Positions 1-28,468 of a DNA stretch of 32,000 nucleotides are shown here, in pieces (position 1 is the first letter of the stretch; each line of letters begins with the position of its first letter). Below the pieces are notes generated by a model that worked only from the letters and a program-made list of their open reading frames with translations, searched no databases and was not told the origin of the DNA. The stretch is taken from NCBI GenBank assembly GCA_029269845.2, contig CP149973.1:1650001-1682000 (forward strand), written 5' to 3'. The stretch comes from Opitutia bacterium KCR 482. GTDB lineage: Bacteria > Verrucomicrobiota > Verrucomicrobiia > Opitutales > Intestinicryptomonadaceae. The position numbers and the translations under genes are program-made.

Positions 1-66
1 GCGAGGGCAAAGCGCGAGTTCGACTCGTTCCGTCCGCGCAGCATCTCGGTTGCGACGCTCGAAAAT

Positions 67-1374
67 TTGAAGAGCGCGGCGATGTCGGAATCCGCCGACT
101 ATGCGGAGCGGCTCGCATCTCTCAAACGCGCGGTTGTAGGGGCGGCGAACCCGAAGCGGGATTCGGGCGCGTCGGATTCTGAAAGCGCGCCGCCGCTCTC
201 CCGTGCGGAGAGGATTTTCGCAAAGTCGCTCTTCACAAAACGAGGCGTCGAAAACGAAATCCACGCGGCGGTGCTCGCAAAATTCAAGGGCAGGACGGTC
301 GTGCTGTGCACAAAGGAATTCATGCCCGAAAAATTCCCCGTGGTGTTCGCAAACGCGGCGGGAAAAGTGTCGTGCTCGCGCGCGTTCGTTTCGGACGAGC
401 TTCCGCTGCTAATGCTCGTGCCCGATTCCGTGCCGCAGTCGCTCGAAGCCTTGGAGATTGCCGACGACTCCGAAGTCCGCATGGGCGCGGAGCTTCTGGC
501 GGTCGCCCCCGACGGCGGCGGATTCCGCTCTCTGGGAGTTTCGGTGTTTTCGGCGGACGAAAAATACCTCAACCTCACCGCCGACACGAACCCGCGCGTT
601 TCGCATAAAATCGACGTAAAACACGTCGGCAGGGACGCAAAGACTTTCGTTTCGGTCTCGGAAATTTCGGAGGTCGGTGACGACGCCGTGGCGGTTGACG
701 CGAAGACGGGGAAGCTTGTCTCGTTCTCGGTCAGGATATACAATCCGGGGGTGCTGTCGCACCACGGAAAGACGGGGTCAATCATCGGGCACGAAAATTC
801 GCCCATTCCCGACTTCACGACTTTCGTAAGGCAGTTCGACGGCAGCGTGAACAAGACTTTCGTTCCGTTCAGCTCGATACGCTTCGTCCGCATGGGTGCG
901 TTGGAAAAATGGAAGCCGCTCGACATCGCAAAATTCGCCCGCCAGAAAAACGAAATCAGGATTCTTACCGACGAAAACAACGACTTCATGATGTTTTTCA
1001 AAAACAACACATTCGGCGAGGCGTTGCGGTCGCGCAGGCTCGGCACAATCGCGGAGCGGTACAAAAAGCCGTTTCTGCACGACAGGCTCAGCCGCGAGTC
1101 CTACGAACGCTCTTACAGAAACTACATGATTGAAGTTTCGTTCGCGCTCAAACGCGAGCTTCAGCACTACGCCAATCCCGACGCATTCTACTCGATTTAC
1201 AGGCAGGAGCTTCTCTACCAGCTGAAACTCCGCCGCTCGATGTACGAATACCTCGCGGAGGGAGTCAAGGACACGAACATCGTAAACATTCTCCACACGG
1301 ACCTCGCAACCCGATACGACAACTGCGGCGTGAACACCGAGCGCGTCGGCGGTTCCATCGGGGGCGGATATTGA
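67..1374 (+). CDS. Hypothetical protein, paralogue 1 of a three-member tandem family (start uncertain, possibly 5'-truncated by window edge)
   Basis: Longest ORF here with ordinary amino-acid composition; the antisense ORFs are Arg/Pro-rich. Position 67 is a TTG and an ATG follows at 82. The frame has no stop from nt 1 to 66, so the gene may begin upstream of the window. It shares motif blocks with the next two ORFs: EIHAAVLAKFKGRTVVLC, GDDAVAVDAKTGKLVSFSV and YRNYMIEVSFALKR..FYSIY. No known family recognised. Confidence 0.6.
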   Translation: MKSAAMSESADYAERLASLKRAVVGAANPKRDSGASDSESAPPLSRAERIFAKSLFTKRGVENEIHAAVLAKFKGRTVVLCTKEFMPEKFPVVFANAAGKVSCSRAFVSDELPLLMLVPDSVPQSLEALEIADDSEVRMGAELLAVAPDGGGFRSLGVSVFSADEKYLNLTADTNPRVSHKIDVKHVGRDAKTFVSVSEISEVGDDAVAVDAKTGKLVSFSVRIYNPGVLSHHGKTGSIIGHENSPIPDFTTFVRQFDGSVNKTFVPFSSIRFVRMGALEKWKPLDIAKFARQKNEIRILTDENNDFMMFFKNNTFGEALRSRRLGTIAERYKKPFLHDRLSRESYERSYRNYMIEVSFALKRELQHYANPDAFYSIYRQELLYQLKLRRSMYEYLAEGVKDTNIVNILHTDLATRYDNCGVNTERVGGSIGGGY

Positions 1375-1384
1375 GGGCAAATCC

Positions 1385-3337
1385 ATGAAAAATCTGCTGT
1401 TGATTCTTCTGCTCGCCGCAATCGGCGGCTGGTACTGCTACGACAAATACGGAAAAACCGCCGCCCCGCGGGGCGACTCCGCCGAGGTCTCCGACCCGCT
1501 CGCCGCCGAAATCCGCGCCCGCGCAAAAACGCTCTTCCCGACGAGGGAGGGCGACCGAAACGCTTGGATTTCGCGCCAAGTTGCGGCAATGCATGCGCTG
1601 GAATCCCGCGCGGAGGGGCTGTCGAAAAAGGATTTCGACTCAATCATGGACGCCGCCCGCCAACGCTACGGCGCGGACTACGAAAAACGGCTCGAATACG
1701 TTTCAAAGCAGAGAACCGCGGCAATCGACGTTGCGAACATCGAGGCGTCGCTCAAAATTCCGCCCGACGCGCTCGCCGAGCTTTCCGCGCGTTTCAGGGA
1801 GGCGTGCGAAGGCGACTTCTGCGCCATGCGCTCGGCGTATTCGGAGGTGTCTTCCGCGCTTTCGGAAATCGCGCGGAAGTCGGCGTCGCTGCCGGCGTCC
1901 GACGCGAAGAAACTCGCGGCAAAAACCGTTCCGCTGCTGCTGAAAAATCCCGTCCGCGCCGTGGAATTTTTCGACGCGCAGGCTTTGGCGCGGCACAACT
2001 TTCTTTCAAAACAAGTGCCCGAAGCCCTCGCAAACGCAAAGGCGGAAATAGAGCAGTCGCTGCCCGACGACTACGCCGCGCAGCTCGCCGCGCTCGACTC
2101 CAAATTGGACGGGTACATGCGCTCTGGCGGCGGGTTTGCAAGCTTTGCCGCAGACAAAATTTCGAAGCTCGGACGCGACTACTTCGCAAAATACATCTAC
2201 GTTGCCGACATCGCCGGCGAGTCCCACCCCGCGTTTTTCGCGGAGGTTCGCGGCAGGGTGTTCGCGGTGTTCCCGAGCGAATATCTGGCGACGCTTCCGA
2301 AGTCGTTTTCGCTCGACGTCGGCGCGGGCGAAAAATTTTCGTCCGACAAAATCTACCTTTCTAAAACGTCGGCGTTCGCGATTGTCGCGCCGCCCGCGTC
2401 CGCCAACCCAGACCCGATTCCGACGGGCAAAATTTCCTCCGACGACGTCGCGGTGGAAATCGTGGGAATTTCCCGCGCGGGCGCAAAGCTTTCCGTTCCC
2501 GCCCGTCTGAAATACGGCAAAAAAATAGAGGCAAACTCCGAAAACGCTTCGCTGCTTGCCGAAAAAATGCGCTCCGGCGCGTTGGTGGTGGAATCGGAAA
2601 CGGGGAAAGTCGTTGCGCTCTTCGAGGCTGTCCCCGCGCCCGACGCCGCAATCTACGCAAGGTTCGACGACCCCTCGGCGTCGGCTCTCGCAAAAATCGG
2701 CGAGCGCATTCCGCGCTGGCGCGGGCTTGACGAAGTGATGCGGACGGCGCGCGCGCGCATGGTATCCGACGGGCGGCGCGAGTTCGCCGCGGTCGCGCTG
2801 TCGTCGCTCGGCGACGTGTCCGCCTACGTTCCGTCGAAGTATTCCGCCCAACGCGCGAACCTCGAAAAAATCTGCGTCTCCAACTTTTCCGCGCTCCGCT
2901 TCATGCTGATAGGCGGCTACGCCGAAGACGTCGAAACACCGGTTATTTCCGACGTCGCCGAGAAGTACAGGCCGTTTTTCATCACGGGCTCTCGCGTGGG
3001 AACTCCCGCGCTATACTCCAAATTTTCGGCGTATATGAACGACGTCAAAAACGCTCTCGTCCGCAACGCGGCGTTCGCCCGCGGCGGCTTCTACTCCGAA
3101 TACTACTACGATTTTTCCGAAGCCGCAAAGCGGCAGGCGGAGCTTTTCGCAAAGCTCGAAAACGTCATGACCCGCGCCATTGCCGCGCCCGACAAAACCG
3201 CGGTTCTCCACGCCGACTTGGCGAAATGTATTGCGGGTTCGTCGTTCGTGCCGTCGGGGCGCGTGTTTTCGCGTCAGGGTTTTTCCGACGGAGGCGGCGG
3301 AAACGTGTTGAGAATGCGCAATGTAAAAAAGGACTAA
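1385..3337 (+). CDS. Hypothetical membrane-anchored protein, paralogue 2 of the tandem family
   Basis: ATG at 1385 lies 10 nt after the upstream stop and is preceded by GAGGG. The N-terminal hydrophobic segment MKNLLLILLLAAIGGWYCY looks like a signal anchor. Blocks shared with the next ORF: KTLFPTREGDRNAWI vs EKLFPDDRAARKKWI, RLEYVSKQ vs KFEYVRAQ, HPAFFAEVRGRVFAV vs HTAVYCRIRGVDVFAV, and GALVVESETGKVVAL vs GAVLLSADSREVFAL. No known family recognised. Confidence 0.7.
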   Translation: MKNLLLILLLAAIGGWYCYDKYGKTAAPRGDSAEVSDPLAAEIRARAKTLFPTREGDRNAWISRQVAAMHALESRAEGLSKKDFDSIMDAARQRYGADYEKRLEYVSKQRTAAIDVANIEASLKIPPDALAELSARFREACEGDFCAMRSAYSEVSSALSEIARKSASLPASDAKKLAAKTVPLLLKNPVRAVEFFDAQALARHNFLSKQVPEALANAKAEIEQSLPDDYAAQLAALDSKLDGYMRSGGGFASFAADKISKLGRDYFAKYIYVADIAGESHPAFFAEVRGRVFAVFPSEYLATLPKSFSLDVGAGEKFSSDKIYLSKTSAFAIVAPPASANPDPIPTGKISSDDVAVEIVGISRAGAKLSVPARLKYGKKIEANSENASLLAEKMRSGALVVESETGKVVALFEAVPAPDAAIYARFDDPSASALAKIGERIPRWRGLDEVMRTARARMVSDGRREFAAVALSSLGDVSAYVPSKYSAQRANLEKICVSNFSALRFMLIGGYAEDVETPVISDVAEKYRPFFITGSRVGTPALYSKFSAYMNDVKNALVRNAAFARGGFYSEYYYDFSEAAKRQAELFAKLENVMTRAIAAPDKTAVLHADLAKCIAGSSFVPSGRVFSRQGFSDGGGGNVLRMRNVKKD

Positions 3338-3342
3338 ATATC

Positions 3343-5169
3343 ATGAAATATCTTGCAATTCTTCTTGCCGCCGCCGCCGCGGGCGCGTACTTCTATTTCG
3401 GTTCGTCCGACTTCGGCGCGTCGAGCCCCGAGGACGCCGCGCTTGCCGCAAAGGCGGAAAAACTCTTTCCCGACGACCGCGCCGCGCGGAAAAAATGGAT
3501 TGCCGCCGCAAAGGGAGTTTCGGCGCAAATAGCGGCTCTCGCGCCGTCCGCGCCGTCGGCGGATTTCGAAAAAATAAAAATCCGCGCCGATGGAAAGTTC
3601 GACCCTGCGTCTCCCGAAAAATTCGAGTACGTACGCGCCCAGCTCGCCGCCCTTGCGAAAATCGAAAGCGGCGCGTCGGACGACGACGTCCTCGACTCGG
3701 AGTTTGCGCTTGCAAAAAAAACCGCGGAGGAAAAATCGCCCGACGATTTCGTCGCGCAGTCCAAATTGGCGGCGTCCTACTGCGCGATGTTCGCCGACGC
3801 CCGCAGGGCGCGGGAAGGCTGCATGAAGTCCGCAACCGACGGCGCATACGCCGAGTTCATCGCGGCGTTTCCGTCGAACCCGTCGGGCGCGTTTGCGCGT
3901 TTCAAAAAGATTTGCGCCGCTCATGCGGCATTCGAAAACGCGCACGTTCCGCCGTTTCTCGACGGAATCAGGGAGCGTCTGTCGGCGGACGTTTCCGACC
4001 CCGTCGCGCGGGCTTCCGAGCTTTCGGCGGTTTTGGAGAATCCGCGCAGGCACTTGGATTCGCGCCTGTTCGCGTCGGCGCGTCCCGACTGGCGCGACTT
4101 GTCCCGCGCGGGCGAAACGCAGCGCGCCATGCTTGAAAATTCCGTATATACCGCGTCTGTCGGCGGACGCCGGCACACGGCGGTTTACTGCCGCATAAGG
4201 GGCGTCGATGTCTTCGCGGTTTCGGGCGCGTGTTTTTCGCGCGGAGAGGTGAAATTTTCTCGCGGCGGCGAAACGGTTTCGGCGAAGCTTTCGAAAGTCG
4301 GCAAAAACCTGCTTTTCTACGCGCCGATTGCCAAGCCTTCGGGCGCGCCCGCCGCCGTATCGCGGCTCGACTATGTTCCGTCGTCGGCGTTTGCCGTCGG
4401 CGGCAACGCGTTCGGAAAAACGGTCTCCGTCCGCGCCTCTCCCGAAAAAATCTCCGACGGCAAAATCGGCTTCTACCAAAGCGGATTTCAGGATTTGCTT
4501 TGCGACGGCGCGGTGCTTTTGTCGGCGGATTCGCGCGAGGTTTTCGCGCTAGGAATCCGCGGCGGCTGGGCTGAACTGCCCAACCCCGACGCGCCAGACG
4601 CCGAGGACGTCGCCGCCCGCGTGCGCATGTCGAAAAGCGCAATCCCCACTTTGGCAAAGGAGTTTGCGACGGATTTTTCCGCCGCAAACGCCTCCGCCGA
4701 ACCGCTCCGCTATTGCCAGCTGGGCGCGGAGTTCGACCAGTCGCTTGGCTACGACGCCGAAAAGGACGCCGCGTTCGGGCATTGTCTTGCCGTGTTTACG
4801 CGCCAAAACAATGCCGCGTTCGCCGCGCTTTCCGACAACCGCATGGAAACTTTCCTTTCGCCCGACACCGAGCGCGACTTTCCAAAACTTTACGCGTCGG
4901 CAATGCGCTTCAAACGCGCGTTCGGCGACGTCCGCAACGCCGCGCAGCTCCGCGCGAACGCCCGAAATTTCATGCAGCAGGTCTGCTCCGACATGGACTC
5001 GTCGCTCCGCGATTTCCGCGCGCGCGAAATCTTCCCGTTCTACGAAAAGGCGGCGCAGGAGCAAATCGAATTCAGGGAAAAGCTCGTTTCCGCGCTGAAA
5101 ACGGCGCTGAAAAAGTCCCCCGCCGACTCGCTCGTCCCGCGCGACGTCTCCGTGGTGTCGTCGCGCTGA
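3343..5169 (+). CDS. Hypothetical membrane-anchored protein, paralogue 3 of the tandem family
   Basis: I start it at ATG 3343 (MKYLAILLAAAAAGAYFYF, hydrophobic anchor), 5 nt after the upstream stop. The track start at 3226 would overlap the previous gene and adds an Arg-rich extension. Architecture and motif blocks are colinear with ORF 1385..3337. Confidence 0.7.
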   Translation: MKYLAILLAAAAAGAYFYFGSSDFGASSPEDAALAAKAEKLFPDDRAARKKWIAAAKGVSAQIAALAPSAPSADFEKIKIRADGKFDPASPEKFEYVRAQLAALAKIESGASDDDVLDSEFALAKKTAEEKSPDDFVAQSKLAASYCAMFADARRAREGCMKSATDGAYAEFIAAFPSNPSGAFARFKKICAAHAAFENAHVPPFLDGIRERLSADVSDPVARASELSAVLENPRRHLDSRLFASARPDWRDLSRAGETQRAMLENSVYTASVGGRRHTAVYCRIRGVDVFAVSGACFSRGEVKFSRGGETVSAKLSKVGKNLLFYAPIAKPSGAPAAVSRLDYVPSSAFAVGGNAFGKTVSVRASPEKISDGKIGFYQSGFQDLLCDGAVLLSADSREVFALGIRGGWAELPNPDAPDAEDVAARVRMSKSAIPTLAKEFATDFSAANASAEPLRYCQLGAEFDQSLGYDAEKDAAFGHCLAVFTRQNNAAFAALSDNRMETFLSPDTERDFPKLYASAMRFKRAFGDVRNAAQLRANARNFMQQVCSDMDSSLRDFRAREIFPFYEKAAQEQIEFREKLVSALKTALKKSPADSLVPRDVSVVSSR

Positions 5170-5250
5170 CGCGGGAAAAATGGCGTCTTGACAAGCCGCG
5201 CGTTCCTGCTAACTCTTTTAGCTTTACGCAACAAACACGCCGTACAGCTA

Positions 5251-6243
5251 ATGAAACTTTTTTACACTCTCGCCGCAATGACACTCTCGACCTGCGCTTT
5301 TGCGCAGTCGTACCTGCTGACCGTCGAAACTTTCGTCGGAAACAAATTGGAGGACAAAATGTCCTTCTCTCTGCAAGTCGGAGAGCCACAGACAAAGGGC
5401 TTCGACGGCAAGCTTCTGGCGAAACGCTACCGCGCAAAGGGCTTCCCCAACAAGCGTTATGCCGAAATAAAGGCGGCGGCGGCAGACGCAAAAAAAACGG
5501 AGGCGGAGGCTAAAATGACCCCGCGCGAAGTCGTGAAAAACCTCGCCGAAAAAACGCGCGGCGAGCTTGCCGCGGCGGAACGCGCAAGCGAATCGGCGGC
5601 GGTTAAAACGGACTCCCTTTCGGAGAAACTCAAACTTTTGGAGGAGCTTGAAGAGCTTGGCTCGCGCAATTCGCCGTCGTTCGACAGGTCGTACGAGGCT
5701 TTCTGCAAAAAGTACGAGCTGACCCCCGCCGACTTGGAATACAAGAAAATGCTCAAAAAACGCCCCGCCTACACGGGCGACATCGAGGAAATCGACTACG
5801 GCTCGTTCTGCGCGGCAAAAATCACGAAGGCCGCCGACAAGGACGCCCTGCTCAATATCGACTACGCGTACTCGCGCATTAGCTCCAGCTTCTACTCGGA
5901 CGGCACAAACAATTCGAATTCGATAACAAAGCACCCCGTGGTCGAGCGTTTCGAAAAATACGGAATGAAAAACGTGCACCTTGTGGTTGGCAAGCCGTAT
6001 TGCGTGCAGTTCGGCAGACTGTCGGCGGAAAAGGCGCGGTCGCTGTCGGAGGCTCTCTCGAAATCGGGCATTTTCGGCGACGGCGAAAGCGTGGCGGGAG
6101 GAGAACAGGCGGAAGCGGAGGCGGACGAATCGGCGAAGCTCGACGCGCAGGGGCTGTACTCGGAAATCAAGCGCAAATATTCGGGCGAGGGCGGTCGCGT
6201 GCTAAGAGCTGTCTTTACTCTTAAACACGACAAAGGGGCGTGA
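5251..6243 (+). CDS. Hypothetical secreted protein with a charged, helix-rich middle region
   Basis: ATG 5251 gives a signal-peptide-like N-terminus, MKLFYTLAAMTLSTCAFAQ. The middle is Lys/Glu/Ala-rich (AEIKAAAADAKKTEAEAK, LSEKLKLLEELEEL), suggesting coiled coil. Strand-like segments sit at both ends (YLLTVETFVG, VHLVVGKPYCVQFG, RVLRAVFTLK). No family recognised. Confidence 0.65.
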   Translation: MKLFYTLAAMTLSTCAFAQSYLLTVETFVGNKLEDKMSFSLQVGEPQTKGFDGKLLAKRYRAKGFPNKRYAEIKAAAADAKKTEAEAKMTPREVVKNLAEKTRGELAAAERASESAAVKTDSLSEKLKLLEELEELGSRNSPSFDRSYEAFCKKYELTPADLEYKKMLKKRPAYTGDIEEIDYGSFCAAKITKAADKDALLNIDYAYSRISSSFYSDGTNNSNSITKHPVVERFEKYGMKNVHLVVGKPYCVQFGRLSAEKARSLSEALSKSGIFGDGESVAGGEQAEAEADESAKLDAQGLYSEIKRKYSGEGGRVLRAVFTLKHDKGA

Positions 6244-6388
6244 AAACGCCCCTCTAAGAGCGTTTCGCGAGTGTCTCAGACTGCTCGCGTACGAAAGTAC
6301 GCCACGCACACGGGGCGTGAAAGCACCGTTGATGCGGCGTTTCGCGAGTGTCTAAGACTGCTCGCGTACGAAAGTACGCCACGCACCC
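6235..6388 (+). repeat. Two tandem copies of a 77-bp hairpin-rich unit starting at the last two sense codons and stop codon of the upstream gene
   Basis: GGGGCGTGAAA occurs at 6235 and 6312, giving a 77-nt period. A 50-nt core at 6260..6309 and 6337..6386 is identical except for one base (TCTCAGA vs TCTAAGA). Each core contains CGCGAG-N12-CTCGCG and GCGTAC-GAAA-GTACGC (a GNRA-type loop). Unit 1 opens with the hairpin GGGGCG-TGAAAA-CGCCCC, whose loop holds the stop codon TGA at 6241..6243. Confidence 0.9.
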
Positions 6389-6495
6389 TTAGCCGCTCGC
6401 AAAGCCACCGCCTGAACGGCACTTTGACGCCCCTAAAATTACAGCGCGGAGCGCGGAATATTTTTAGAGTGCGTTGGGATAAAAGTTGGGTTTAT

Positions 6496-6542
6496 AAAAA
6501 AGCGGAGAATCCATGTTTTGGGATTTCCGCTTTTTCTTTTTT
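6496..6542 (+). terminator. Rho-independent terminator (A-tract / stem / T-tract, potentially bidirectional)
   Basis: AAAAAAGCGGAGAATCC-ATGTTTTG-GGATTTCCGCT-TTTTCTTTTTT. The stem is 11 bp with one bulged G. A T-rich tail follows and an A-run precedes it. Confidence 0.7.
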
Positions 6543-6595
6543 CGCGCAAAGCGCGTTTATTTAAATTTTTATATCGCATATCCCAATGCTAGTAA

Positions 6596-6740
6596 TTGCC
6601 AACGGCAATACAAACTAATCGGGGAAAGCGGCAAGTATACTTGCCGCGCATAATCACAGAAAGGAGCGAAGCTCCGACGCCGTGCAGGCAGCTTGCCTGC
6701 CGCACCTTGCGCCCTCTAATTGACTTGATTAAACAGAGGG
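6596..6740 (+). promoter_or_regulatory. Hairpin-dense leader upstream of the solute-binding protein gene, including a perfect 20-bp palindrome
   Basis: Consecutive inverted repeats: TTGCC-AAC-GGCAA (6596..6608); GCGGCAAGTATACTTGCCGC (6628..6647, a perfect palindrome); GGAGC-GAA-GCTCC (6663..6675); GCAGGCA-GCT-TGCCTGC (6684..6700); and CCCTCT-N17-AGAGGG (6712..6740), which abuts the G-rich pre-start region. Confidence 0.35.
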
Positions 6741-6760
6741 TGGGGGTAGAGTTGTGGGGT

Positions 6761-7825
6761 ATGATAAGGTATATAGTATTGGCGATGGCGGTTGTTGCCG
6801 TTGGGCTGGGCGGGTGCTCGACGTCGGCGGTGGACGACGGCTCGTATCCGATGGGGGTGATGCTGCCCGCGAAGGGAGTCGGGGCGGCGGCTTCGGCGGA
6901 GGTCGTGCGCGGCATGGAGCTTGCCTGCGGCGAGATAAACGCGGCGGGCGGGCTTGACGGCATTCCGCTCAAATTGCTTGTGCGCGACTCTTCGACATTT
7001 TTGGAAAGTTTTGAATCGCTGCGCCGCGCGGGGGCGCGGGTGCTGAGCGTGGGCTTCGGGCGCGAGTGCATTGCCCAAAAGGCGTTTCTTTCGAAGCGCG
7101 ACGACGTTTTTGTAAACTTCATGTGTACATACCCGCCCGCCACGCTCGACATGCCGAACGCAACGCGCATATTCCTGAACGGGGCGCAGGCGGGCGACAT
7201 CATGGCGAAGGCGGTCGCGCGCGGGGAGGACAGGGACGTTCGGCTTGTCGTCATGAACGTCGACGACTACTTCGGCAAGGCGGACGCCGACTACCTTTCG
7301 TTCGACTTAAAACTCGACCGCACAAAACTCTACCGCGACGTTTTCGGCGCGGACGAGCGCGACTTCGACATTTTCGCCTCGCAGATAATGAGGCTCGACG
7401 CCGACTGCGTGTTTTACGTCGGCTACGGCGATTCGCTCGACGCGTTCGTGTCGGCGTTGGCTCGCGCGGGATACGGCAAAAAAATCGTGGCGAACTGCGG
7501 AATCGCGGCGTCTAAAATCCCCGCCCCGAAAGGCGTCGAACTGTGCATCGTGGAGACCGACTTTGCGCGGGGAACGCTCGGCGGCGAAAAAACGCGGGCG
7601 TTCGTTTCGGCGTATCGGGCGAAATACGGCACCGAGCCGACGTGGCTTGCGGCGTACGGGTACGATTCCGTCCGCATGCTTGCCGACGCGGCGAGGAAGT
7701 CGCGCTTCAACCCGTCGAAAATGCGCGACTGTTTCCGCAACACGTCCTGCGAGGGCGCGGCGGGGAAAATCGAGTTCGACAACTCGGCGGATTCGCTCTC
7801 GCAAATTTCGCTCGTAAAGCGGTAG
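6761..7825 (+). CDS. Periplasmic solute-binding lipoprotein, LivK/LivJ-like (type 1 periplasmic binding fold, branched-chain amino acid binding family)
   Basis: ATG 6761 gives MIRYIVLAMAVVAVGLGGCS, a signal peptide with an LGGC lipobox. ELACGEINAAGGLDGIPLKLLVRDS and AFVSAYRAKYGTEPTWLAAYGYDSVRMLADA match hallmark blocks of Leu/Ile/Val-binding-type proteins. The track start at 6596 adds an unlikely extension across the hairpin leader. Confidence 0.72.
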   Translation: MIRYIVLAMAVVAVGLGGCSTSAVDDGSYPMGVMLPAKGVGAAASAEVVRGMELACGEINAAGGLDGIPLKLLVRDSSTFLESFESLRRAGARVLSVGFGRECIAQKAFLSKRDDVFVNFMCTYPPATLDMPNATRIFLNGAQAGDIMAKAVARGEDRDVRLVVMNVDDYFGKADADYLSFDLKLDRTKLYRDVFGADERDFDIFASQIMRLDADCVFYVGYGDSLDAFVSALARAGYGKKIVANCGIAASKIPAPKGVELCIVETDFARGTLGGEKTRAFVSAYRAKYGTEPTWLAAYGYDSVRMLADAARKSRFNPSKMRDCFRNTSCEGAAGKIEFDNSADSLSQISLVKR

Positions 7826-10977: not shown

Positions 10978-13020
10978 ATGGACAATAGAGACAAGAATTC
11001 GGGATTTTCCAAACTGCCAAACAAGCCGTACTTTGTGTGGCTGCTGGTAATCTGCGCGGTGGTGTTTCTTGTGTCGCTCCCGCGCGGCGCGGGCGGCGGG
11101 CAAACGCAGGAGCTTGATGTGCGCAAACTCATGCATGCCGTCGAAAACGACACAATCGCTTCGATGACCGTGCGCAACGACCCAACCGCGGGCAAAGACT
11201 GGTACGTAATAGAGGGGAAAATCAAGAACCCGACTTTCGGCAAGGAGGGCGCGGACGCCAACACCCCGCGCACGCTTCCGTTCGTTTTCAACGGCCGCAT
11301 AACCGACGAAATGTACAAAAAACTTTCCGACCCCGCCGCCCCGTGGGATTTGAAGGAAGTTCCCGCAAGCACTTTCTGGGGCAGCATGGTGATGTCGGTT
11401 CTGCCTTTCGTGATTGTCGTGGGCTTTCTGTATTTCTTTTTCATGCGCCAGATGCGCGGCGCGGGCAAGGGCGCGATGTCGTTCGGCAAAAGCCGCGCGC
11501 GCCTGCTTACGCCAGACAAGGACAGAATCACTTTCGCCGACGTCGCGGGCTGCGACGAATCCAAGGAGGAGGTTTCCGAAATTGTCGAATTTCTGAAAAA
11601 TCCGCAGCGTTTCAAGGACATCGGCGCGAGAATCCCCAAGGGCATTCTGATGGTTGGCCCTCCCGGAACGGGCAAGACGCTTCTTGCCCGCGCAGTCGCG
11701 GGAGAGGCGGACGTTCCGTTCTTTTCGATAAGCGGTTCGGATTTTGTGGAAATGTTCGTGGGCGTCGGCGCGGCGAGGGTTCGCGACATGTTCGAGCAGG
11801 CCCGCAAGGCGGCTCCGTGCCTTGTGTTCATCGACGAAATCGACGCCGTGGGACGCCAGCGCGGCGCGGGTCTAGGCGGCGGCAACGACGAGCGCGAGCA
11901 GACTCTCAATTCGCTGCTCGTCGAAATGGACGGCTTCGACTCCCGCACGGGCATAATAATCATCGCCGCGACCAACCGCCCCGACGTTCTCGACAACGCG
12001 CTTCTGCGCCCCGGACGCTTCGACAGGCAGGTTGTAATCGACCTTCCCGACGTGAACGGGCGCGAGGAGATTCTGAAAATCCACGCAAAAAAAATCAAAC
12101 TTTCGGACGGCGTGGATTTGTCGAAAATCGCCCGCATGACCCCCGGCTGTTCGGGCGCGGATTTGGCGAACCTGCTCAACGAAAGCGCGATTATCGCCGC
12201 CAGAAGGAGCGAAAAAACCGTCTCGGAAGCCGACATCGACGAGGCTCGCGACAAGGTCTTCTTCGGGCGCGAACGCAAAAAACTCATGGACGCCGACGAG
12301 AAAAAACTTACCGCATACCACGAGGCGGGGCATGCGCTCATTCAGGCGATTGTCGACAACGGCAGACTGCCCGTCCACAAGGTGACGATTATTCCGCGCG
12401 GACAGAGCTTGGGTTCCACAATGTTCATTCCCTCGCGCGATATCCGCACCGAAAGCAAGACGTCGCTTCTTAACAACATCTGCACGAGCCTCGGCGGGCG
12501 CGTGGCGGAGGAGCTTGTGCTCTCCGACATCACAAACGGCGCGGCGGCGGACATCAAGCAGGCTACGAAAGTCGCCCGCAAAATGGTCTGCGACTGGGGC
12601 ATGAGCGACCTCGGCCCGATTTCATTCGGCGAAAATCAGGACCACATTTTCATTGGGCGCGAAATCGCCCGCGAGGAGCGCGTCAGCGAGCGCACCGCAA
12701 TGGAAATCGACGAAAGCGTAAAGGCGATTATCGACGGACAGCTCGCGCGGGCGCGGAAAATCGTCTCCGACAACCGCGGGAAGCTCGACACAATCGCGAA
12801 CGAGCTTTTGATTCGCGAGACAATCGACGGCGCGGACGTCTACAAAATCGTGGACGGAACTTTCACCCCGACCGACAGGGAGCAGTGGGAGTGCGAGCAG
12901 GCGGAAAAGCTTGCCGCCAAGCGGAAAGCCGCCGCGAATCCCGACGCGGAGCGGAAGCCCGAAGCCGCCGACGGCGCGGAAACGGACGCCTCGGACGCGT
13001 CGCCCGAAGCCGCGTCTTAG
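10978..13020 (+). CDS. ftsH: ATP-dependent zinc metalloprotease FtsH
   Basis: Two N-terminal TM segments; Walker [19 protein letters not shown]; Walker [11 protein letters not shown]; second region of homology [19 protein letters not shown]; zinc motif HEAGHAL. Confidence 0.97.
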
Positions 13021-17105: not shown

Positions 17106-18263
17106 ATGGAGGACGATTCCGAAAAAGGCGAACCGCGCATTCTCCGCAAAGACGGCGAAGAAATCGAAATAGTGTACGCCGACGCGGGCGACGAAATAGA
17201 AATCGGCGAGGACGAGGAGGTCGAGTTTATCGAGCTTCCGCCGCCGCCTTTCGGCGCGTTCCCGCCAGAATTTGCGCCCTCCCGCCCGCAGGAGGTCCGT
17301 CCGCGCCCGAAACCGCAGACGGGGCGCGGCCGCAACCTCAACATAAAAAAAACTTCGAAAAAGTCCGCGGAAACCGCGCCTGCTGAGTCGGACTCGACTG
17401 GCGGAAAACCCTTCCGCGCAAACATAAGACCCGATGAAGCGCAGCCCGCGCGGCATTCGGGCAGGCTTGCGGCGTTTTTCAAATTCTTCCTTGCCGCGGC
17501 CGTTTGCCTTGCGGGAATCGCCGCGTGCGGCTACGCAATTTTCATCTTCCACGAAAAGCTCGCGTCGTCGTCCGTCGCGGAATCCGCCGAAGCGTCGGCA
17601 AATTCGGGCGGCATCGCCGACAAAAAGGCGAACGCGGTTGTCCGCAGTTTCTACGAATTTTCGGGCGGATTGGCGACGTCGGCGGAGTTCCGCGACATGC
17701 TCGTAAAGGGCGTCGTGAAATCGGGCGGCGCGGAGAAAAGCTTTTACGGAATCAGGCGTCCGAACGGGCGCACCTACGCAAAGCTGGGCGACACCCGCGC
17801 GTACTTCGCCGAAAGGCTCGGCGCGGGCGTGTTCCTTCTGCGCGACATGCGCGTTTCGGGCGCGCGGGAGAAACTTTCGGGGCGCGACGCGCTGTTTGTT
17901 CGCACCATGACGCTCTTCGACGAACCGCTGTTTTCCGCGTTTTTCCCGCAGTCGGAAAACGCCGACGACAGCTCCGCGGTGTCCTACGCGGGCGCGGAGA
18001 TTTTCGACGGGCGCGACGCCGAAGTTGTGGCCGTCGAAAACGGGGCGGTGAAAACCCGCTACTTCTTCGCCGCCGCAAGCGGCGAGATGCTCGCGGCGGA
18101 ATATTCCGACGGTTCGCAAAAGGCGCTCGTCAAATTTTCCGACTACCGCGCGGAGAACGGCGTGAAGTTTCCGCTCAAAAAGGAGGTTTTTGCGGGCGGG
18201 AAAAAGATTTTCGAAATGTCGCTCGACTTGGCGATACGCAACAGGGGCTTCCTGTTCCCGTAG
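17106..18263 (+). CDS. Hypothetical single-pass membrane protein (acidic, then Pro-rich and basic N-terminus, one TM, about 240-aa extracytoplasmic domain)
   Basis: ATG directly follows the proA stop codon. The N-terminus is acidic (EEIEIVYADAGDEIEIGEDEEVEFIE), followed by a Pro/Arg-rich linker and the TM segment LAAFFKFFLAAAVCLAGIAACGYAIFIF. Composition is ordinary, whereas the antisense ORF is Arg-rich. No family recognised. Confidence 0.6.
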   Translation: MEDDSEKGEPRILRKDGEEIEIVYADAGDEIEIGEDEEVEFIELPPPPFGAFPPEFAPSRPQEVRPRPKPQTGRGRNLNIKKTSKKSAETAPAESDSTGGKPFRANIRPDEAQPARHSGRLAAFFKFFLAAAVCLAGIAACGYAIFIFHEKLASSSVAESAEASANSGGIADKKANAVVRSFYEFSGGLATSAEFRDMLVKGVVKSGGAEKSFYGIRRPNGRTYAKLGDTRAYFAERLGAGVFLLRDMRVSGAREKLSGRDALFVRTMTLFDEPLFSAFFPQSENADDSSAVSYAGAEIFDGRDAEVVAVENGAVKTRYFFAAASGEMLAAEYSDGSQKALVKFSDYRAENGVKFPLKKEVFAGGKKIFEMSLDLAIRNRGFLFP

Positions 18264-22042: not shown

Positions 22043-22088
22043 CTTTTTTTGCGAAACTTTTTTGTGCGCCGCGCGTTTACCCCTTTAT

Positions 22089-23135
22089 ATGGCGGACAAA
22101 ATCATATTTGCCGACGACGGCGCGTTTTTTGCGAAGACGCTCGACGCGCCCGAATCGCTTTCCGACGCCGATTTGCGCGGCTTCGTCGAAACGTGGGTCG
22201 AGACAAACTCGCCCATGCCCGCCGAGCGCATGCGCACGGGCTTTTTGCGCGTTGGCGGCAGGGTGCACGTTTTTTCGGGCTTGGCCGAGCGCGTCTTTGC
22301 GGGGCTTGACGGCGCGGAGGCGGAGTCTCCCGTGGTCGCGCCCGCGTCGCTGCTGCCGTTGTGCGGGGTGTCCGACGGCTTCGCGCTTGTGCGCTCGCCG
22401 AGCTGTATTTCGATTGCCGAATTTTCCGATGGGGCGATTGTCTCTTTGTGCTCCCGCAAAAATTCGGGGGACGCGTCCGCCGACATTGCCGCGCTTCGTG
22501 CGGAATCGGGTTCAGCGGGCGGCGGGCGAATGTTTGTCGTTTCCGACGGGCTTGTGTCGGAATTCGACGGGGAAGGCTCTCTTTTGTCGGGCGCGGCAGT
22601 TCCGAAAGCCGTGTTCCGCATTCCCGAAAAGGCTCTCGCGACCCTCGACGTGCGCGACGCCGAAATCGTCCGCGCGTTCGCAAAAAAACGCCGCGCCGAA
22701 CGGCTGAAATCGGCGTGTCTGCGGCTTGTCCCGCTTGCGTTCGCGCTCCTGCTCTTGGGGCAGATTGCGCTGTGGTTCGGGGAGTGCGGGGTGTCGCGCA
22801 TGGCGGCTGAATTTGCGGAAATAGAGCCGCAGGCGAAGGAGATAGAGTCTCGCGCGGAGCGGCTTGCGGAGCTTCGCAGATTTTCGCGCAAAAAGCTCCG
22901 CGCGGTGGAGTCGCTCGCGCTGCTCAATGCCGACCGTCCCGAAAAGGTGCGGTTTTTGCGCTACACGCAGACTTCGCCGAATTCCGCGGAAATACGCGGC
23001 TATGCGGCGACGATAGGCGAGACTAACGCATATCTCGACGCCCTCAAAAAGAATCCCGCTGTTGCCTCCGCCGAGCTTAAATCGGAGACTTCGCGCGGCG
23101 AGGCAAAATTCGTTCTCGGCGTGGTTTTGAAATGA
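22089..23135 (+). CDS. Hypothetical bitopic protein with GspL-like / PilN-like architecture
   Basis: ATG 22089 (MADKIIFADDG). About 215-aa cytoplasmic domain, basic stop-transfer KKRRAERLK, and the TM LRLVPLAFALLLLGQIALWF. Then a heptad-like stretch (AEIEPQAKEIESRAERLAELRRF) and a small C-terminal alpha/beta domain (IRGYAATIGETNAYLDALKKNPAVASAELKSE..FVLGVVLK), as seen in PilN/GspL periplasmic domains. The call rests on architecture only. Confidence 0.45.
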   Translation: MADKIIFADDGAFFAKTLDAPESLSDADLRGFVETWVETNSPMPAERMRTGFLRVGGRVHVFSGLAERVFAGLDGAEAESPVVAPASLLPLCGVSDGFALVRSPSCISIAEFSDGAIVSLCSRKNSGDASADIAALRAESGSAGGGRMFVVSDGLVSEFDGEGSLLSGAAVPKAVFRIPEKALATLDVRDAEIVRAFAKKRRAERLKSACLRLVPLAFALLLLGQIALWFGECGVSRMAAEFAEIEPQAKEIESRAERLAELRRFSRKKLRAVESLALLNADRPEKVRFLRYTQTSPNSAEIRGYAATIGETNAYLDALKKNPAVASAELKSETSRGEAKFVLGVVLK

Positions 23136-25501: not shown

Positions 25502-26557
25502 CTATTTGCGCCTGTCAACACTATTGCATTTTGCGCGGCACTTTTGGAACACGGCTTTGCGCGGGCGCGCGCGGTTCGGCTCGGGTTGCCCGTTTTCGCG
25601 CCGTTTGCGGTTTTTGCCCTCCCGCGCGGGGGAGGGCGCGTTTGCGCCGCGTTCGAGCAGGCGTTTGGGCGACGATCCGAAGCGCGTTTTGATTGCGTTT
25701 GAAAGCGAGTACGCGTCGGCGTAGCCGAACTTTTTTGCGCACGCTTTGAGCGTCGCCCCGCGGGCGTATTCTTCGAGTGCGGATTCGAGGCGGATTGTCC
25801 GCGCGGCTTGCGCGAATGTCGTTCCGCGGGCGCGTACAAATATTACGTCGAGCGTTTTTGTATCAAGCTTTTCGCGCTTGGCGGCTTTCGCGCGGGTGTG
25901 GGGCTTGGCGGGGCCTTTGCGGATTTTCTCCGAAATGGCGTCGGCGGCTTGGGTGTCGCGCTCCGTTTCGCTTTCGGAAATTTCGCGCCTGAGCGTTTCG
26001 GCGAGAACTTTCAGAATGTTCCGCAAATGCTCGCGGGAGGCGTGTTCGGAATACGCTTCGTCGGCGTACATCTGCGCGAGAGCCGCGATTTTCCCGAACT
26101 CCGCCGACTTCCCCGCCCTTTCTCTTGCGCCGACCAGCGCGTGCCACGGCGACTTCCGCGCGAATCTGAACCACAGCACCCGCGCCCCGCGCCCGCTTAC
26201 GGCGTCGCGGCAGACCGTACCCGCGGGGAGAATGAAAAATCCGCCGCGCCCGATTTTGAAGTCGCAGTTTTCGGTTTTTGCGCCGTATTTGCCGTCGAGG
26301 ACGAAAATCGCCTCGTCGGTTTCGGTTTCCTTTCGCATTATGTAGTATCCGCTGCGGTGGGTGGCAAACGCCGCGCCTTCAAGCCCGAACTCCGCGAAGA
26401 TTTCGGCGCGGGGATTTTTCGGGGCTTCTATTCCGCCCCTGTTGACGAAACGCGGCGGCATGTGTTTTGTGGGCTTCGAAAGGTATTTTATCTTGCTTTC
26501 GGCGGGCCACACCTGAATGCGGTCGGTCTTCGAGATTTTCCAGAGCTGTTTGGGCAT
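25502..26557 (-). CDS. AraC/XylS-family transcriptional regulator (cupin-like sensor plus HTH) with an unusually long basic C-terminal tail
   Basis: Cupin-like N-terminal half (FFILPAGTVCRD, VLWFRF). C-terminal AraC HTH block (ARTIRLESALEEYARGATLKACAKKFGYADAYSLSNAIKTRFGSSPKRL). ATG at 26557, with an alternative TTG at 26575. The stop is 18 nt upstream of the synthetase start on the same strand. Confidence 0.85.
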   Translation of the reverse strand: MPKQLWKISKTDRIQVWPAESKIKYLSKPTKHMPPRFVNRGGIEAPKNPRAEIFAEFGLEGAAFATHRSGYYIMRKETETDEAIFVLDGKYGAKTENCDFKIGRGGFFILPAGTVCRDAVSGRGARVLWFRFARKSPWHALVGARERAGKSAEFGKIAALAQMYADEAYSEHASREHLRNILKVLAETLRREISESETERDTQAADAISEKIRKGPAKPHTRAKAAKREKLDTKTLDVIFVRARGTTFAQAARTIRLESALEEYARGATLKACAKKFGYADAYSLSNAIKTRFGSSPKRLLERGANAPSPAREGKNRKRRENGQPEPNRARPRKAVFQKCRAKCNSVDRRK

Positions 26558-26653
26558 AATGAGATTTTTTTGCAAAAGATGTTGTTTTTATTAATTGAAT
26601 GCGCGTCGGTTTTCAAATAAAATGAAATTTTAAAATTTATCGAAAGGGGAAAC

Positions 26654-28468
26654 ATGTTTTTCAGATATTCAGCAGTCGCCGCGTTTATTCTCGCGGCGTG
26701 TTCGGCTTGGGCACAGGTGGCAACGCTTATCGAAACGCCGAAATCGGGCGCGGCAACGGAGCGCACGTACAAGCTCGAAAAGACCTCGGCGGACTCTTAC
26801 AGGCTCTTTATTCCGAGGTCGGACATTTCGCCCTCGGCGAAGTGTGTTGAAATTTCAACGGACTTCGCGCGGGCGAAGCGCGGCGACGCGGGGAGCATAA
26901 TTTTCTCGCGCGGCGAGATTGTCGATTTCGACGCGCCCGACGGCAGGGTGAATCTCGGAAGGTTCATTCTGCCTATTGTCGCCATGAAGACCGACAAATG
27001 CAATTTCTGGGCGCAGATAAAAACGCTCCGCAATGAGGCGTCATGCTGGCTCGAAGTCCGCAACGGCGTCTTCACCCCGTTTGTGCGCTACGACATTGCG
27101 GGCACGGGGTTCGGCGTGTACGACGACATCGTAATAGAATACAACATGCTTCCGAAAGACGCGGGCTATGTTGAAATCGGCAAGGCGTACCGCAAGAAGC
27201 TGCTCGACGCAGGGATTGTCCGCCCGCTCAAAGAGCGCATCAAGGAGCAGCCGTGGCTGGAATACATGGCGAAGTCCGTTCCCGTGCGCATTCAGTTCCA
27301 CGGCTCGAAAAAGCGTCAGGACAAAGATTTTACCCCCGAAACCGAGCCGCCTGTAATCCCCGTGCTCGACTTCAAAAAGTCGATAGCGTTTGTGGACGAG
27401 TTCAAGAAATGCGGAATCGGCGAAGTGACATTCTGCTCGGCGGGCTGGCAGAGCGGCGGCTACGACGGGCGTTTCCCCGACATCTTCCCGATTCCCGAAG
27501 AGCTGGGCGGCGAGGCGGCTTTGCGCGAGTTCATTGCGCACGTCAAAAAACTCGGATACAGAATCCACGCGCACACAAATTCCACCGACTGCTACACGTG
27601 TTCGCGCATGTGGAACGGCGGCGAGGTCGCGGCGAAGAACGTCAACGGCACTCCCCAGCGCGGGTACTTCTGGGGCGGCGGCAGGGCGTACAACCTGTGC
27701 GCAAAAAACGCGTACGAAAAATTCCTTCCCGACCAGCTCAAAAAAGTCCGCGACTTGGGCTTTCAGGCACCGCACTACATCGACGTGTTCTCGGCAGTTC
27801 CGCCCTACATGTGCGCCGACCCAAAGCACCCCGCCACGCGCGACGAAATGGGCGAAGTGCAGATTAAAATCGCAAAATTCTGCCAAAAGGAATTCGGCGG
27901 CTTTGCGAGCGAGGCCGGCTTCGACCACATCGCGGGGCAGCTCGACTATATCAACTATGTCAGCGGCAAGATGTCGAAGTGGTACAACTCGAAGGCGGGG
28001 CGCGAACCCAAGGGCACGTTCTTCGAAAAGCTTTCGCACTATGTAGACGGCTTTGTCCCGCTTTGGGAGATTGCCTACCACGGCATAATTTTGAGCAATC
28101 CAGACCGCTTTACGCAGAACCATACCACGGGCAAGGCGAAAACCGACGACAGCGGCGACCTTACCTTCAACAAGCGCGACGGCGTTCAGGATCCCTTTGC
28201 CACGCTCAAGCTTTTCGAATACGGCGGCAGGCCGATTTTCTATTCGAGCAATTTCGACGACGTTCCGCGAATCAAAAAGGCTTACGACGAATTTCTGCCC
28301 GTGCGCCACTTGCAGCTCGAATTCATGGAAGACCACAAGTATTTGACGCCCGACGTTACCATGACGGTCTTCGGCAACGGCGAAAAGATTGTCTGCAACT
28401 ACGGCAAAACTCCCTACGTCTACAAAGGCAAAACCGTAGCCCCCATGAAGTATTTGCTGACGAAGTAG
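26654..28468 (+). CDS. Secreted or lipoprotein hypothetical protein, possibly a TIM-barrel glycoside-hydrolase-like enzyme (DUF5696-like, from memory only)
   Basis: AAGGGGA lies 5-6 nt upstream of ATG 26654. The signal peptide MFFRYSAVAAFILAACSAWAQ includes a possible LAAC lipobox. The central region (FCSAGWQSGGYDGRFPDIFP, YRIHAHTNSTD, APHYIDVFS, FASEAGFDH) alternates hydrophobic strands with conserved acid/His positions like a sugar-active barrel. It is divergent from the AraC gene. The functional call is weak. Confidence 0.7.
   Translation: MFFRYSAVAAFILAACSAWAQVATLIETPKSGAATERTYKLEKTSADSYRLFIPRSDISPSAKCVEISTDFARAKRGDAGSIIFSRGEIVDFDAPDGRVNLGRFILPIVAMKTDKCNFWAQIKTLRNEASCWLEVRNGVFTPFVRYDIAGTGFGVYDDIVIEYNMLPKDAGYVEIGKAYRKKLLDAGIVRPLKERIKEQPWLEYMAKSVPVRIQFHGSKKRQDKDFTPETEPPVIPVLDFKKSIAFVDEFKKCGIGEVTFCSAGWQSGGYDGRFPDIFPIPEELGGEAALREFIAHVKKLGYRIHAHTNSTDCYTCSRMWNGGEVAAKNVNGTPQRGYFWGGGRAYNLCAKNAYEKFLPDQLKKVRDLGFQAPHYIDVFSAVPPYMCADPKHPATRDEMGEVQIKIAKFCQKEFGGFASEAGFDHIAGQLDYINYVSGKMSKWYNSKAGREPKGTFFEKLSHYVDGFVPLWEIAYHGIILSNPDRFTQNHTTGKAKTDDSGDLTFNKRDGVQDPFATLKLFEYGGRPIFYSSNFDDVPRIKKAYDEFLPVRHLQLEFMEDHKYLTPDVTMTVFGNGEKIVCNYGKTPYVYKGKTVAPMKYLLTK

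Follow-up and report, generated by a model that had tools for sequence, protein, structure and literature searches.

What is the function of three adjacent bacterial genes whose products are related to one another and match no Pfam or NCBIfam model, and do those products work together? The genes lie at the start of a 32,000-nucleotide stretch of the genome of Opitutia bacterium KCR 482 (GenBank assembly GCA_029269845.2, contig CP149973.1, positions 1,650,001 to 1,682,000 of the forward strand), which we call the window and from whose first letter all coordinates are counted. An earlier interpretation made from the DNA letters without database searches (the sequence-only reading) had described them as a tandem array of three divergent paralogs followed by a secreted partner. 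Our analysis indicates that all three encode members of one extracytoplasmic, membrane-tethered family whose central domain probably has the fold of chymotrypsin-like proteases and is best read as a pseudoprotease. That these tethered paralogs act jointly with the secreted partner in the envelope is an explanation to which we give about an even chance.

Layout of the locus

Three open reading frames (ORFs) follow in succession on the plus strand, with a fourth behind them, separated by spacers of 10, 5 and 81 nucleotides (nt); the three same-strand frames and the first two gaps had already been reported, and our ORF list agrees. Copy 1 had been started at a TTG at position 67, which is an artifact since frame 1 is already open at nt 1. 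The alternative offered at the time, that copy 1 is cut by the window edge, was the right one: the homolog in the related locus L003 has 655 amino acids (aa), and the part inside the window is identical at 457/457 codons to L003:8023-9987, while the copy 2 protein of L003 is 99% identical to that of the window. Copy 1 shares 99.85% identity with WYJ06960.1 (hypothetical protein P3B99_007035, Opitutia bacterium KCR 482), and that label is the sole annotation that we found in any source. The longest ORF for copy 3 begins at 3226 and overlaps copy 2; related contigs start it at 3343 (MKYLAILL). The features of the array and its partner are as follows.

1..1374, plus strand: copy 1 (c1-type), the C-terminal 457 codons of a predicted 655-aa lipoprotein whose 198 N-terminal codons lie upstream of the window
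208..930 (limits approximate), plus strand: probable degenerate chymotrypsin-like β-barrel of copy 1, from colinear alignment with the copy 2 domain
1385..3337, plus strand: copy 2 (c2-type), a complete ORF of 650 aa with orthologs at 25-99% identity
1385..1450, plus strand: predicted signal anchor of copy 2, aa 1-22 (model helix aa 2-22), with the juxtamembrane motif GGWY[CY]YDKY
1496..2122, plus strand: helical region of copy 2, aa 38-246, with five helix-turn-helix hairpins and at least three recognizable PDDY repeats
2198..2824, plus strand: double β-barrel of copy 2, aa 272-480, chymotrypsin-fold-like in the model and without a catalytic triad
2831..3232, plus strand: C-terminal helical domain of copy 2, aa 483-616 (model helices)
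3343..5169, plus strand: copy 3 (c3-type), 608 aa, predicted signal anchor MKYLAILLAAAAAGAYFYFG, start as called in L001 and L003
4126..4776 (limits approximate), plus strand: probable degenerate β-barrel of copy 3, from alignment with the copy 2 domain
5251..6243, plus strand: secreted partner c4, 330 aa, with a predicted signal peptide and two invariant Cys
6231..6256, no strand: GC-rich hairpin with an 11-bp stem that spans the c4 stop codon

Paralogy and extent of the family

Are the three proteins truly related? BLASTP aligned copies 1 and 2 over 447 colinear residues (E 9e-6, 20% identity) and copies 2 and 3 over 411 residues (E 8e-5, 24% identity), and gave merely E 0.18 for copies 1 and 3. 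As a test of paralogy, a profile built from copy 2 orthologs alone was compared with 1.84 billion representative proteins; it matched, at E 1.5e-42, the copy 1 representative P0022 (97% identity to copy 1) and, at E 1.2e-15 and over its full length, the copy 3 representative P0063 (98.7% identity to copy 3). A hidden Markov model (HMM) of the family matches copy 1 at E 1e-138 and copy 3 at E 6e-127, and the alignment of the three copies is colinear from the signal sequence through the C-terminus. Judged by their sequences, the three copies are true paralogs, with a similarity far above chance.

The colinear motif blocks on which the sequence-only reading had built its case occupy the same alignment columns in all three copies, and the Tyr-rich C-terminal blocks are common to copies 1 and 2. 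Its His-containing block is a real block of the alignment, although the His itself occurs in only 6/69 members. The duplication is old and each copy has been kept, as had been supposed, for the copies share 20-24% identity and each has its own series of orthologs reaching down to 22-38%. On the three points that had been named as able to overturn the idea of a paralog array, we found that the copies are related, that they belong to no characterized sequence family and that their homologs are clustered.

At E ≤ 1e-3 the profile matched 128 representative clusters, of which 72 also pass E ≤ 1e-10. About 70 of these clusters, which are defined at 50% identity, are full-length (530-710 aa), and the remaining matches are fragments or small proteins that resemble the N-terminal helical region only; the cluster of copy 2 alone holds 379 member sequences. 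The 69 full-length members that were aligned provide all the conservation counts given here. None of the three copies has a Pfam or NCBIfam match at E ≤ 1, and the 69 members show no consistent Pfam match, only scattered chance ones, with no peptidase model even at E 0.1, so that the lack of a Pfam-type signature noticed in the three copies extends to their relatives. PADLOC and PHROG gave no matches for the three copies and c4 apart from a chance one for c4 (0.058). Searches of PDB sequences with the copy 2 and family profiles gave no relative at E ≤ 10, and the copy 2, family, c4 and repeat profiles yielded chance coiled-coil matches only. In the literature on Opitutia/KCR 482 and on periplasmic pseudoproteases we found nothing on the family. 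The 90%-identity database cluster of the copy 2 protein P0001 also lists 608/609-aa copy 3 sequences, which are 93-99% identical to copy 3 and about 24% identical to copy 2; by these identities the mixed cluster is a database clustering oddity and not biology.

Architecture, repeats and membrane tethers

All three copies have a common architecture: a tether, about five PDDY hairpins, a double β-barrel and a C-terminal helical domain. The AlphaFold model of copy 2, which rests on a 9-sequence alignment, has a mean predicted local distance difference test score (pLDDT) of 76.4, with values of 85-92 in the structured domains, including the barrel. It places a membrane helix at the N-terminus (aa 2-22), followed by hairpin helix pairs at 38-50/55-76, 81-95/99-122, 127-141/145-166, 171-187/189-208 and 218-225/230-246, a β-rich domain with one barrel at aa 272-334, another at 355-416 and further strands at 466-480, and C-terminal helices at 483-509, 512-517, 522-532, 540-566, 575-600 and 610-616.

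The hairpin repeat is about 45 aa long, with the consensus IP..V...IK..A...YPDDY.MQ.Y.I..Q..AY. In other bacteria many small secreted proteins consist of it (P0081-P0136), and a repeat HMM made from these small proteins has three matches each in c1, c2 and c3. A Mrr_cat restriction-endonuclease domain was present in 4/30 repeat-only proteins; otherwise the 30 gave chance Pfam matches only, with no Pfam model for the repeat and no solved structure. The PDDY helical-hairpin repeat is a second unnamed module, widespread in small secreted proteins. Only M1, W61 and A91 are nearly invariant in the 69 members, and the latter two lie in the first two hairpins.

The subfamilies, assigned by the best match of each family member, differ in their tethers. 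Members of the c1-type carry a lipoprotein signal in about 13/16 cases, and Asp or Glu often follows the Cys. The N-terminus of full-length copy 1 reads MKIDLNKKTLLALSAISALFLCGC|DF, with the lipobox LCGC|D, and by sequence it has the signal peptide with lipobox ([LVI][ASTVI][GAS]C) of bacterial lipoproteins. The c2-type has an uncleaved anchor with the motif GGWY[CY]YDKY, which is found in all its members; in the copy 2 ortholog alignment G14, W16, Y17, Y19, D20 and K21 are invariant. The c3-type has an anchor ending in GGYYYY, and a more distant group of about 550 aa has an ordinary cleavable signal peptide. Additionally, the c1-type has a conserved Cys pair (column 296 in 15/16 and column 320 in 16/16), as expected for proteins of an oxidizing compartment, and invariant P330, P336 and W478. 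From these signals, together with the Cys pairs of the c1-type and of c4, the three copies are predicted to be extracytoplasmic and membrane-tethered, copy 1 by lipidation. The sequence-only reading had seen an anchor and a helical region in copies 2 and 3 only. Its extracytoplasmic, tethered location holds, but all three copies are tethered, and copy 1, at 655 aa, is not shorter and has the PDDY hairpins too.

Fold of the β domain

A Foldseek search of the PDB with the copy 2 model returned proteases of the PA clan (chymotrypsin fold) as all of its top 44 matches, among them arterivirus nsp4, MarP/Rv3671c, DegP, DegS, AlgW, MamO, M. tuberculosis HtrA, TEV and 3C. The scores run from E 1.2e-3 to about 5e-2, with a template modeling (TM) score to target of at most 0.55 (0.50-0.55 for DegS, MarP and MamO) and a root-mean-square deviation (rmsd) of 5-13 Å. 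Similarly, the predicted viral structures in BFVD gave 30 matches at E ≤ 1e-3, and every named one is a non-structural protein or polyprotein of an RNA virus, of a kind that bears a chymotrypsin-like protease (astrovirus nsp1a, barnavirus). The model shows the two-barrel topology of the PA clan, with 7 + 6-7 strands in aa 272-334 and 355-480, in a single model and at marginal E-values. When the 69-member barrel alignment was compared with DegP by hhalign, the two were colinear over 159 columns and the alignment landed on the motif positions TNxHV, DxAxL and GxSGG; its probability of 0.8% is not significant alone, and we used it just to place the triad positions. We consider a chymotrypsin-like (PA-clan) fold for the barrel probable, not proven, and hold it with moderate confidence. 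The shared strand blocks of the sequence-only reading would then be part of a degenerate chymotrypsin-fold domain that it had not recognized.

Catalytic positions

If the fold is that of a protease, is the domain still an enzyme? In the hhalign alignment His105 of DegP (TNNHVV) falls on E299 of copy 2 (FPSEYL), Asp135 (SDIALI) on A330 and Ser210 (GNSGGAL) on S397 (MRSGALV). The triad-equivalent residues are thus E/A/S in copy 2, E/P/D in copy 1 and C/gap/D in copy 3. Among the 69 members, column 299 holds Glu in 22, Thr in 8 and Ser in 6, column 330 holds Pro in 48, and column 397 holds Glu in 21, Ser in 15 and Asp in 7. No barrel-domain column has His in more than 12/69 members, and the 69-member alignment shows no His-Asp-Ser (or Cys) triad of the PA-clan kind. 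A catalytic His in the His-containing block was considered and rejected on the count of 6/69 given above. Trypsin, Trypsin_2 and related Pfam or NCBIfam models found no match in the three copies (E ≤ 1) or the 69 members (E ≤ 0.1). What is conserved are structural positions (G290, K291, P297, S326, P330, P336, P339, G361 and G398) plus D403. This pattern resembles that of a pseudoenzyme that keeps its fold, and the family is best read as a pseudoprotease family.

Could copy 2 at least be an active, unconventional peptidase in a membrane-bound protease complex, to which copies 1 and 3 contribute as non-catalytic regulators or adaptors and whose substrates are c4 or other envelope proteins? Several observations lean that way, for Ser397 in MRSGALVV aligns with GNSGGALV of DegP and is kept in 7/15 c2-type members (G398 in 13/15), no polar residue of the barrel is better conserved than Asp/Glu403 (51/69), and it is the c2-type that single-copy genomes retain. 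Such an enzyme would, however, have no His anywhere near the His-equivalent column and Ala or Pro in place of the Asp, half the c2-type members, like copies 1 and 3, lack its Ser, and no member comes within reach of a peptidase Pfam model at the relaxed threshold mentioned above. We think an active peptidase improbable.

Gene order and copy number

The 9-sequence alignment also served to find related loci, and these show a fixed gene order and a variable copy number. In three-copy loci the order is always c1-c2-c3, including in L018, where the proteins are only 38, 26 and 22% identical to those of the window. Two-copy loci have c1+c2 (L006, L020, L012) or c2+c3 (L021), and one-copy loci hold a c2-type gene (L007, L013-L017, L019), so that a genome may have one, two or three copies. 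Eleven distinct loci, which cover the one-, two- and three-copy forms, have the gene for c4 downstream of the array: directly behind three-copy arrays and the two-copy array of L012, and in single-copy loci behind an intervening gene for a small low-complexity secreted protein. An arrangement of three plus one had been proposed as the unit to look for across genomes; its order and its partner are conserved, but the arrays vary between one, two and three copies and the partner is sometimes absent.

The host of the window is a gut bacterium of the Opitutales, and the relatives in reference genomes are all from gut-derived assemblies of the Verrucomicrobiota, class Opitutia, order Opitutales, among them UBA4654 (95% identity), UMGS1069, HGM23545, Candidatus Merdousia and Puniceicoccaceae bacterium Marseille-Q1082. 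The neighbors upstream are genes for enolase, a GFO_IDH_MocA-family (Gfo/Idh/MocA) oxidoreductase, HU and HisS, and those downstream encode a Peripla_BP_6 protein, ComEC, TilS and FtsH. Because the three copies and c4 have no PADLOC or PHROG matches and the flanks are syntenic housekeeping genes, the locus does not appear to be mobile or defense-related, and nothing in it resembles an anti-phage defense or phage cassette. A link to competence via comEC, two genes downstream, was rejected as a conserved association because the neighbors of single-copy loci differ (rubredoxin, flavodiiron protein).

Did tandem duplication simply leave separate hypothetical proteins whose roles are redundant or unrelated, and which form no joint system and have nothing to do with c4? 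A copy number that ranges from 1 to 3 would fit this, as would the distant family members, which stand alone amid housekeeping genes without c4. We nevertheless regard it as unlikely, given that the order c1-c2-c3 and the subfamily-specific tethers have been kept across deep divergence, that the intergenic gaps are 5-10 nt and that c4 stands behind arrays of every copy number, in 11 distinct loci altogether. The same features, that is the 10- and 5-nt gaps, the order kept at 22-38% identity and the position of c4 behind arrays of one to three copies, lead us to favor joint action of the paralogs.

In L021 (11515-13113), from one Opitutales metagenome-assembled genome, copy 1 is absent and AT-rich DNA with a transposase/integrase fragment (…YYNTERPHQNLDNE…) occupies the c4 position, as if the locus had been rearranged or had degraded.

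The secreted partner c4

That a secreted protein follows the array had been noted before, and the ORF at 5251..6243 does have a predicted signal peptide (…CAFAQ|SY) and is conserved across genomes. The signal peptide is of the cleavable kind and would leave a mature c4 of 310 aa. The c4 family, a small and strongly conserved one, comprises 25 clusters; C187 and C251 are among its 55 invariant columns. Searches at E ≤ 1 gave c4 no match in Pfam or NCBIfam, and none of the 25 clusters has a Pfam match. The c4 model (pLDDT 68.5) has a β-hairpin sheet at the N-terminus, long helices that take up about 100 residues, and four long strands. The top 18 Foldseek matches in the PDB are secretins, although they are weak (E 0.016-0.6, probability 0.16-0.8, rmsd about 15 Å), with TM below 0.2 except for about 0.27 with InvG entries. 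Neither PF00263 nor N0/N1-type domains were found in c4, and a profile of 17 orthologs retrieved no secretin among PDB sequences. Like the secretins GspD, PilQ, RcpA and InvG, c4 has a signal peptide and, in the model, long paired β-strands, but it is far smaller and has a long coiled-coil insert. We treat the resemblance as a lead only, suggested by the model, and not as a classification.

In single-copy locus L007 the protein inserted ahead of c4 (11400-11981) has 193 aa, is secreted and is rich in Ala, Pro and Gln, with equivalents in L008, L014-L017 and L019. The window has no equivalent, the gap between copy 3 and c4 being merely 81 nt. This spacer contains a TTGACA hexamer (5186..5215, cttgacaagccgcgcgttcctgctaactc), which was not listed by the consensus scan and could be part of an internal promoter of the c4 gene. 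The hairpin over the c4 stop codon, the strongest that the consensus scan found in 1..7000, is a possible end of the transcription unit.

Proposed function and comparison with known systems

How might such a set of proteins work? In the explanation that we favor, the barrel would be a pseudoprotease that has retained a peptide- or protein-binding cleft and not catalysis. The three tethered paralogs would act jointly on the periplasmic face of the inner membrane, possibly as a 1:1:1 hetero-oligomer of c1, c2 and c3 by analogy to the trimerizing barrels of the HtrA type (HtrA protease domains trimerize), and the complex would work with c4 as an envelope scaffold or a quality-control-like complex. 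Three specialized, differently anchored paralogs are the pattern expected of a hetero-oligomeric scaffold. The three paralogs and their secreted partner are probably a lineage-specific envelope complex, and with the sequence-only reading we infer a dedicated envelope system.

A number of points weigh against this explanation. The fold call comes from one model with a 9-sequence alignment and marginal Foldseek E-values (1e-3 to 5e-2), and the profile-sequence comparison with DegP (probability 0.8%) is not significant by itself. The triad mapping, made by alignment, is approximate, and copy 2 retains Ser at the nucleophile-equivalent column, which leaves room for residual or unconventional catalysis. 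Also, the existence of single-copy genomes means that a three-part complex is not obligatory, and c4 is absent nearby in the two-copy loci L006 and L020. That the barrel is unrelated to proteases, a generic pair of small β-barrels with another function such as a glycan- or peptidoglycan-binding module, would suit these same Foldseek scores (E 1e-3 or weaker, rmsd 5-13 Å), the DegP probability, the 9 sequences behind the model and host genomes rich in glycan-degrading genes (DUF5696, GH127, NamZ), yet we find it distinctly unlikely when all top 44 PDB matches are of the PA clan and the named viral matches are likewise of a protease-bearing kind, when TM to target reaches 0.50-0.55 for DegS, MarP and MamO, and when the hhalign alignment spans the whole domain colinearly and arrives at all three motif positions.

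Among the known systems closest to these pseudoprotease paralogs is the HtrA family (DegS, DegP, DegQ; MEROPS S1C, PA clan). HtrA proteins are periplasmic, their double β-barrel is the best structural match, their motif positions align colinearly with the family barrel, and DegS has an N-terminal inner-membrane anchor as members of this family do. Unlike them, the family has neither a His-Asp-Ser triad nor a Trypsin/Peptidase_S1 sequence match, it has no PDZ domain (Pfam) and in the model an all-helical region follows the barrel, and about 200 aa of helical repeats stand ahead of it. MarP/Rv3671c of M. tuberculosis (PDB 3lt3, 3k6z; rank 3, TM 0.54) is a membrane-anchored protein whose chymotrypsin-fold domain likewise faces the periplasm, but its triad is intact and it is active as a serine protease; it has four transmembrane helices and lacks a helical-repeat region or C-terminal helical domain.

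A further comparison is with MamO of magnetotactic bacteria, a membrane-associated protein with a chymotrypsin-fold domain that lacks catalytic competence. Its degenerate HtrA-like domain has a non-proteolytic role, and its structure (PDB 5hma) ranked 11th with a TM to target of 0.52. MamO, however, keeps HtrA sequence similarity and has a TauE-like membrane domain, neither of which is found in this family, and the di-histidine metal site of MamO has no sign of a counterpart in a family in which His is almost absent. The chymotrypsin fold and pseudoproteases are already known; what is new is the family, its architecture, the set of three paralogs with three tethers and the partner protein.

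Why would such a system matter? The family is an unannotated one, its host bacteria are common in gut metagenomes, and it adds a bacterial chymotrypsin-fold domain, as we read it, that has lost the triad and has long been kept in three differently anchored paralogs. The envelope of the Verrucomicrobiota is poorly understood, and KCR 482, with its complete 2.3-Mb record, could make the system testable if a culture of it can be had. A bolder idea, and in our estimation a long shot, is that a c1-c2-c3 heterotrimer forms a non-catalytic inner-membrane platform on which a small, secretin-like outer-membrane oligomer of c4 docks, a new trans-envelope apparatus confined to gut Opitutales. If true, a protease fold would have become the structural core around which a machine for secretion or uptake is built.

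Other features of the window

Beyond the array and c4 the window is ordinary chromosome, and Rfam and tRNA scans of it found nothing. The Peripla_BP_6 ORF (6596..7825) has 409 aa from its first TTG and 346-357 aa in related contigs, and in view of these shorter calls its real start is probably internal. Because it lies behind c4 in three-copy genomes only, it probably does not belong to the system. Two plus-strand ORFs, at 17106..18263 and 22062..23135 (385 and 357 aa), have no Pfam match at E ≤ 1e-3. At 25502..28468 a gene for an AraC-type regulator (HTH_18) is divergent from one for a DUF5696 protein with weak GH101-like similarity. The latter is probably a glycan-utilization gene unrelated to the paralog array; a DUF5696 gene is also present near the two-copy locus L006.

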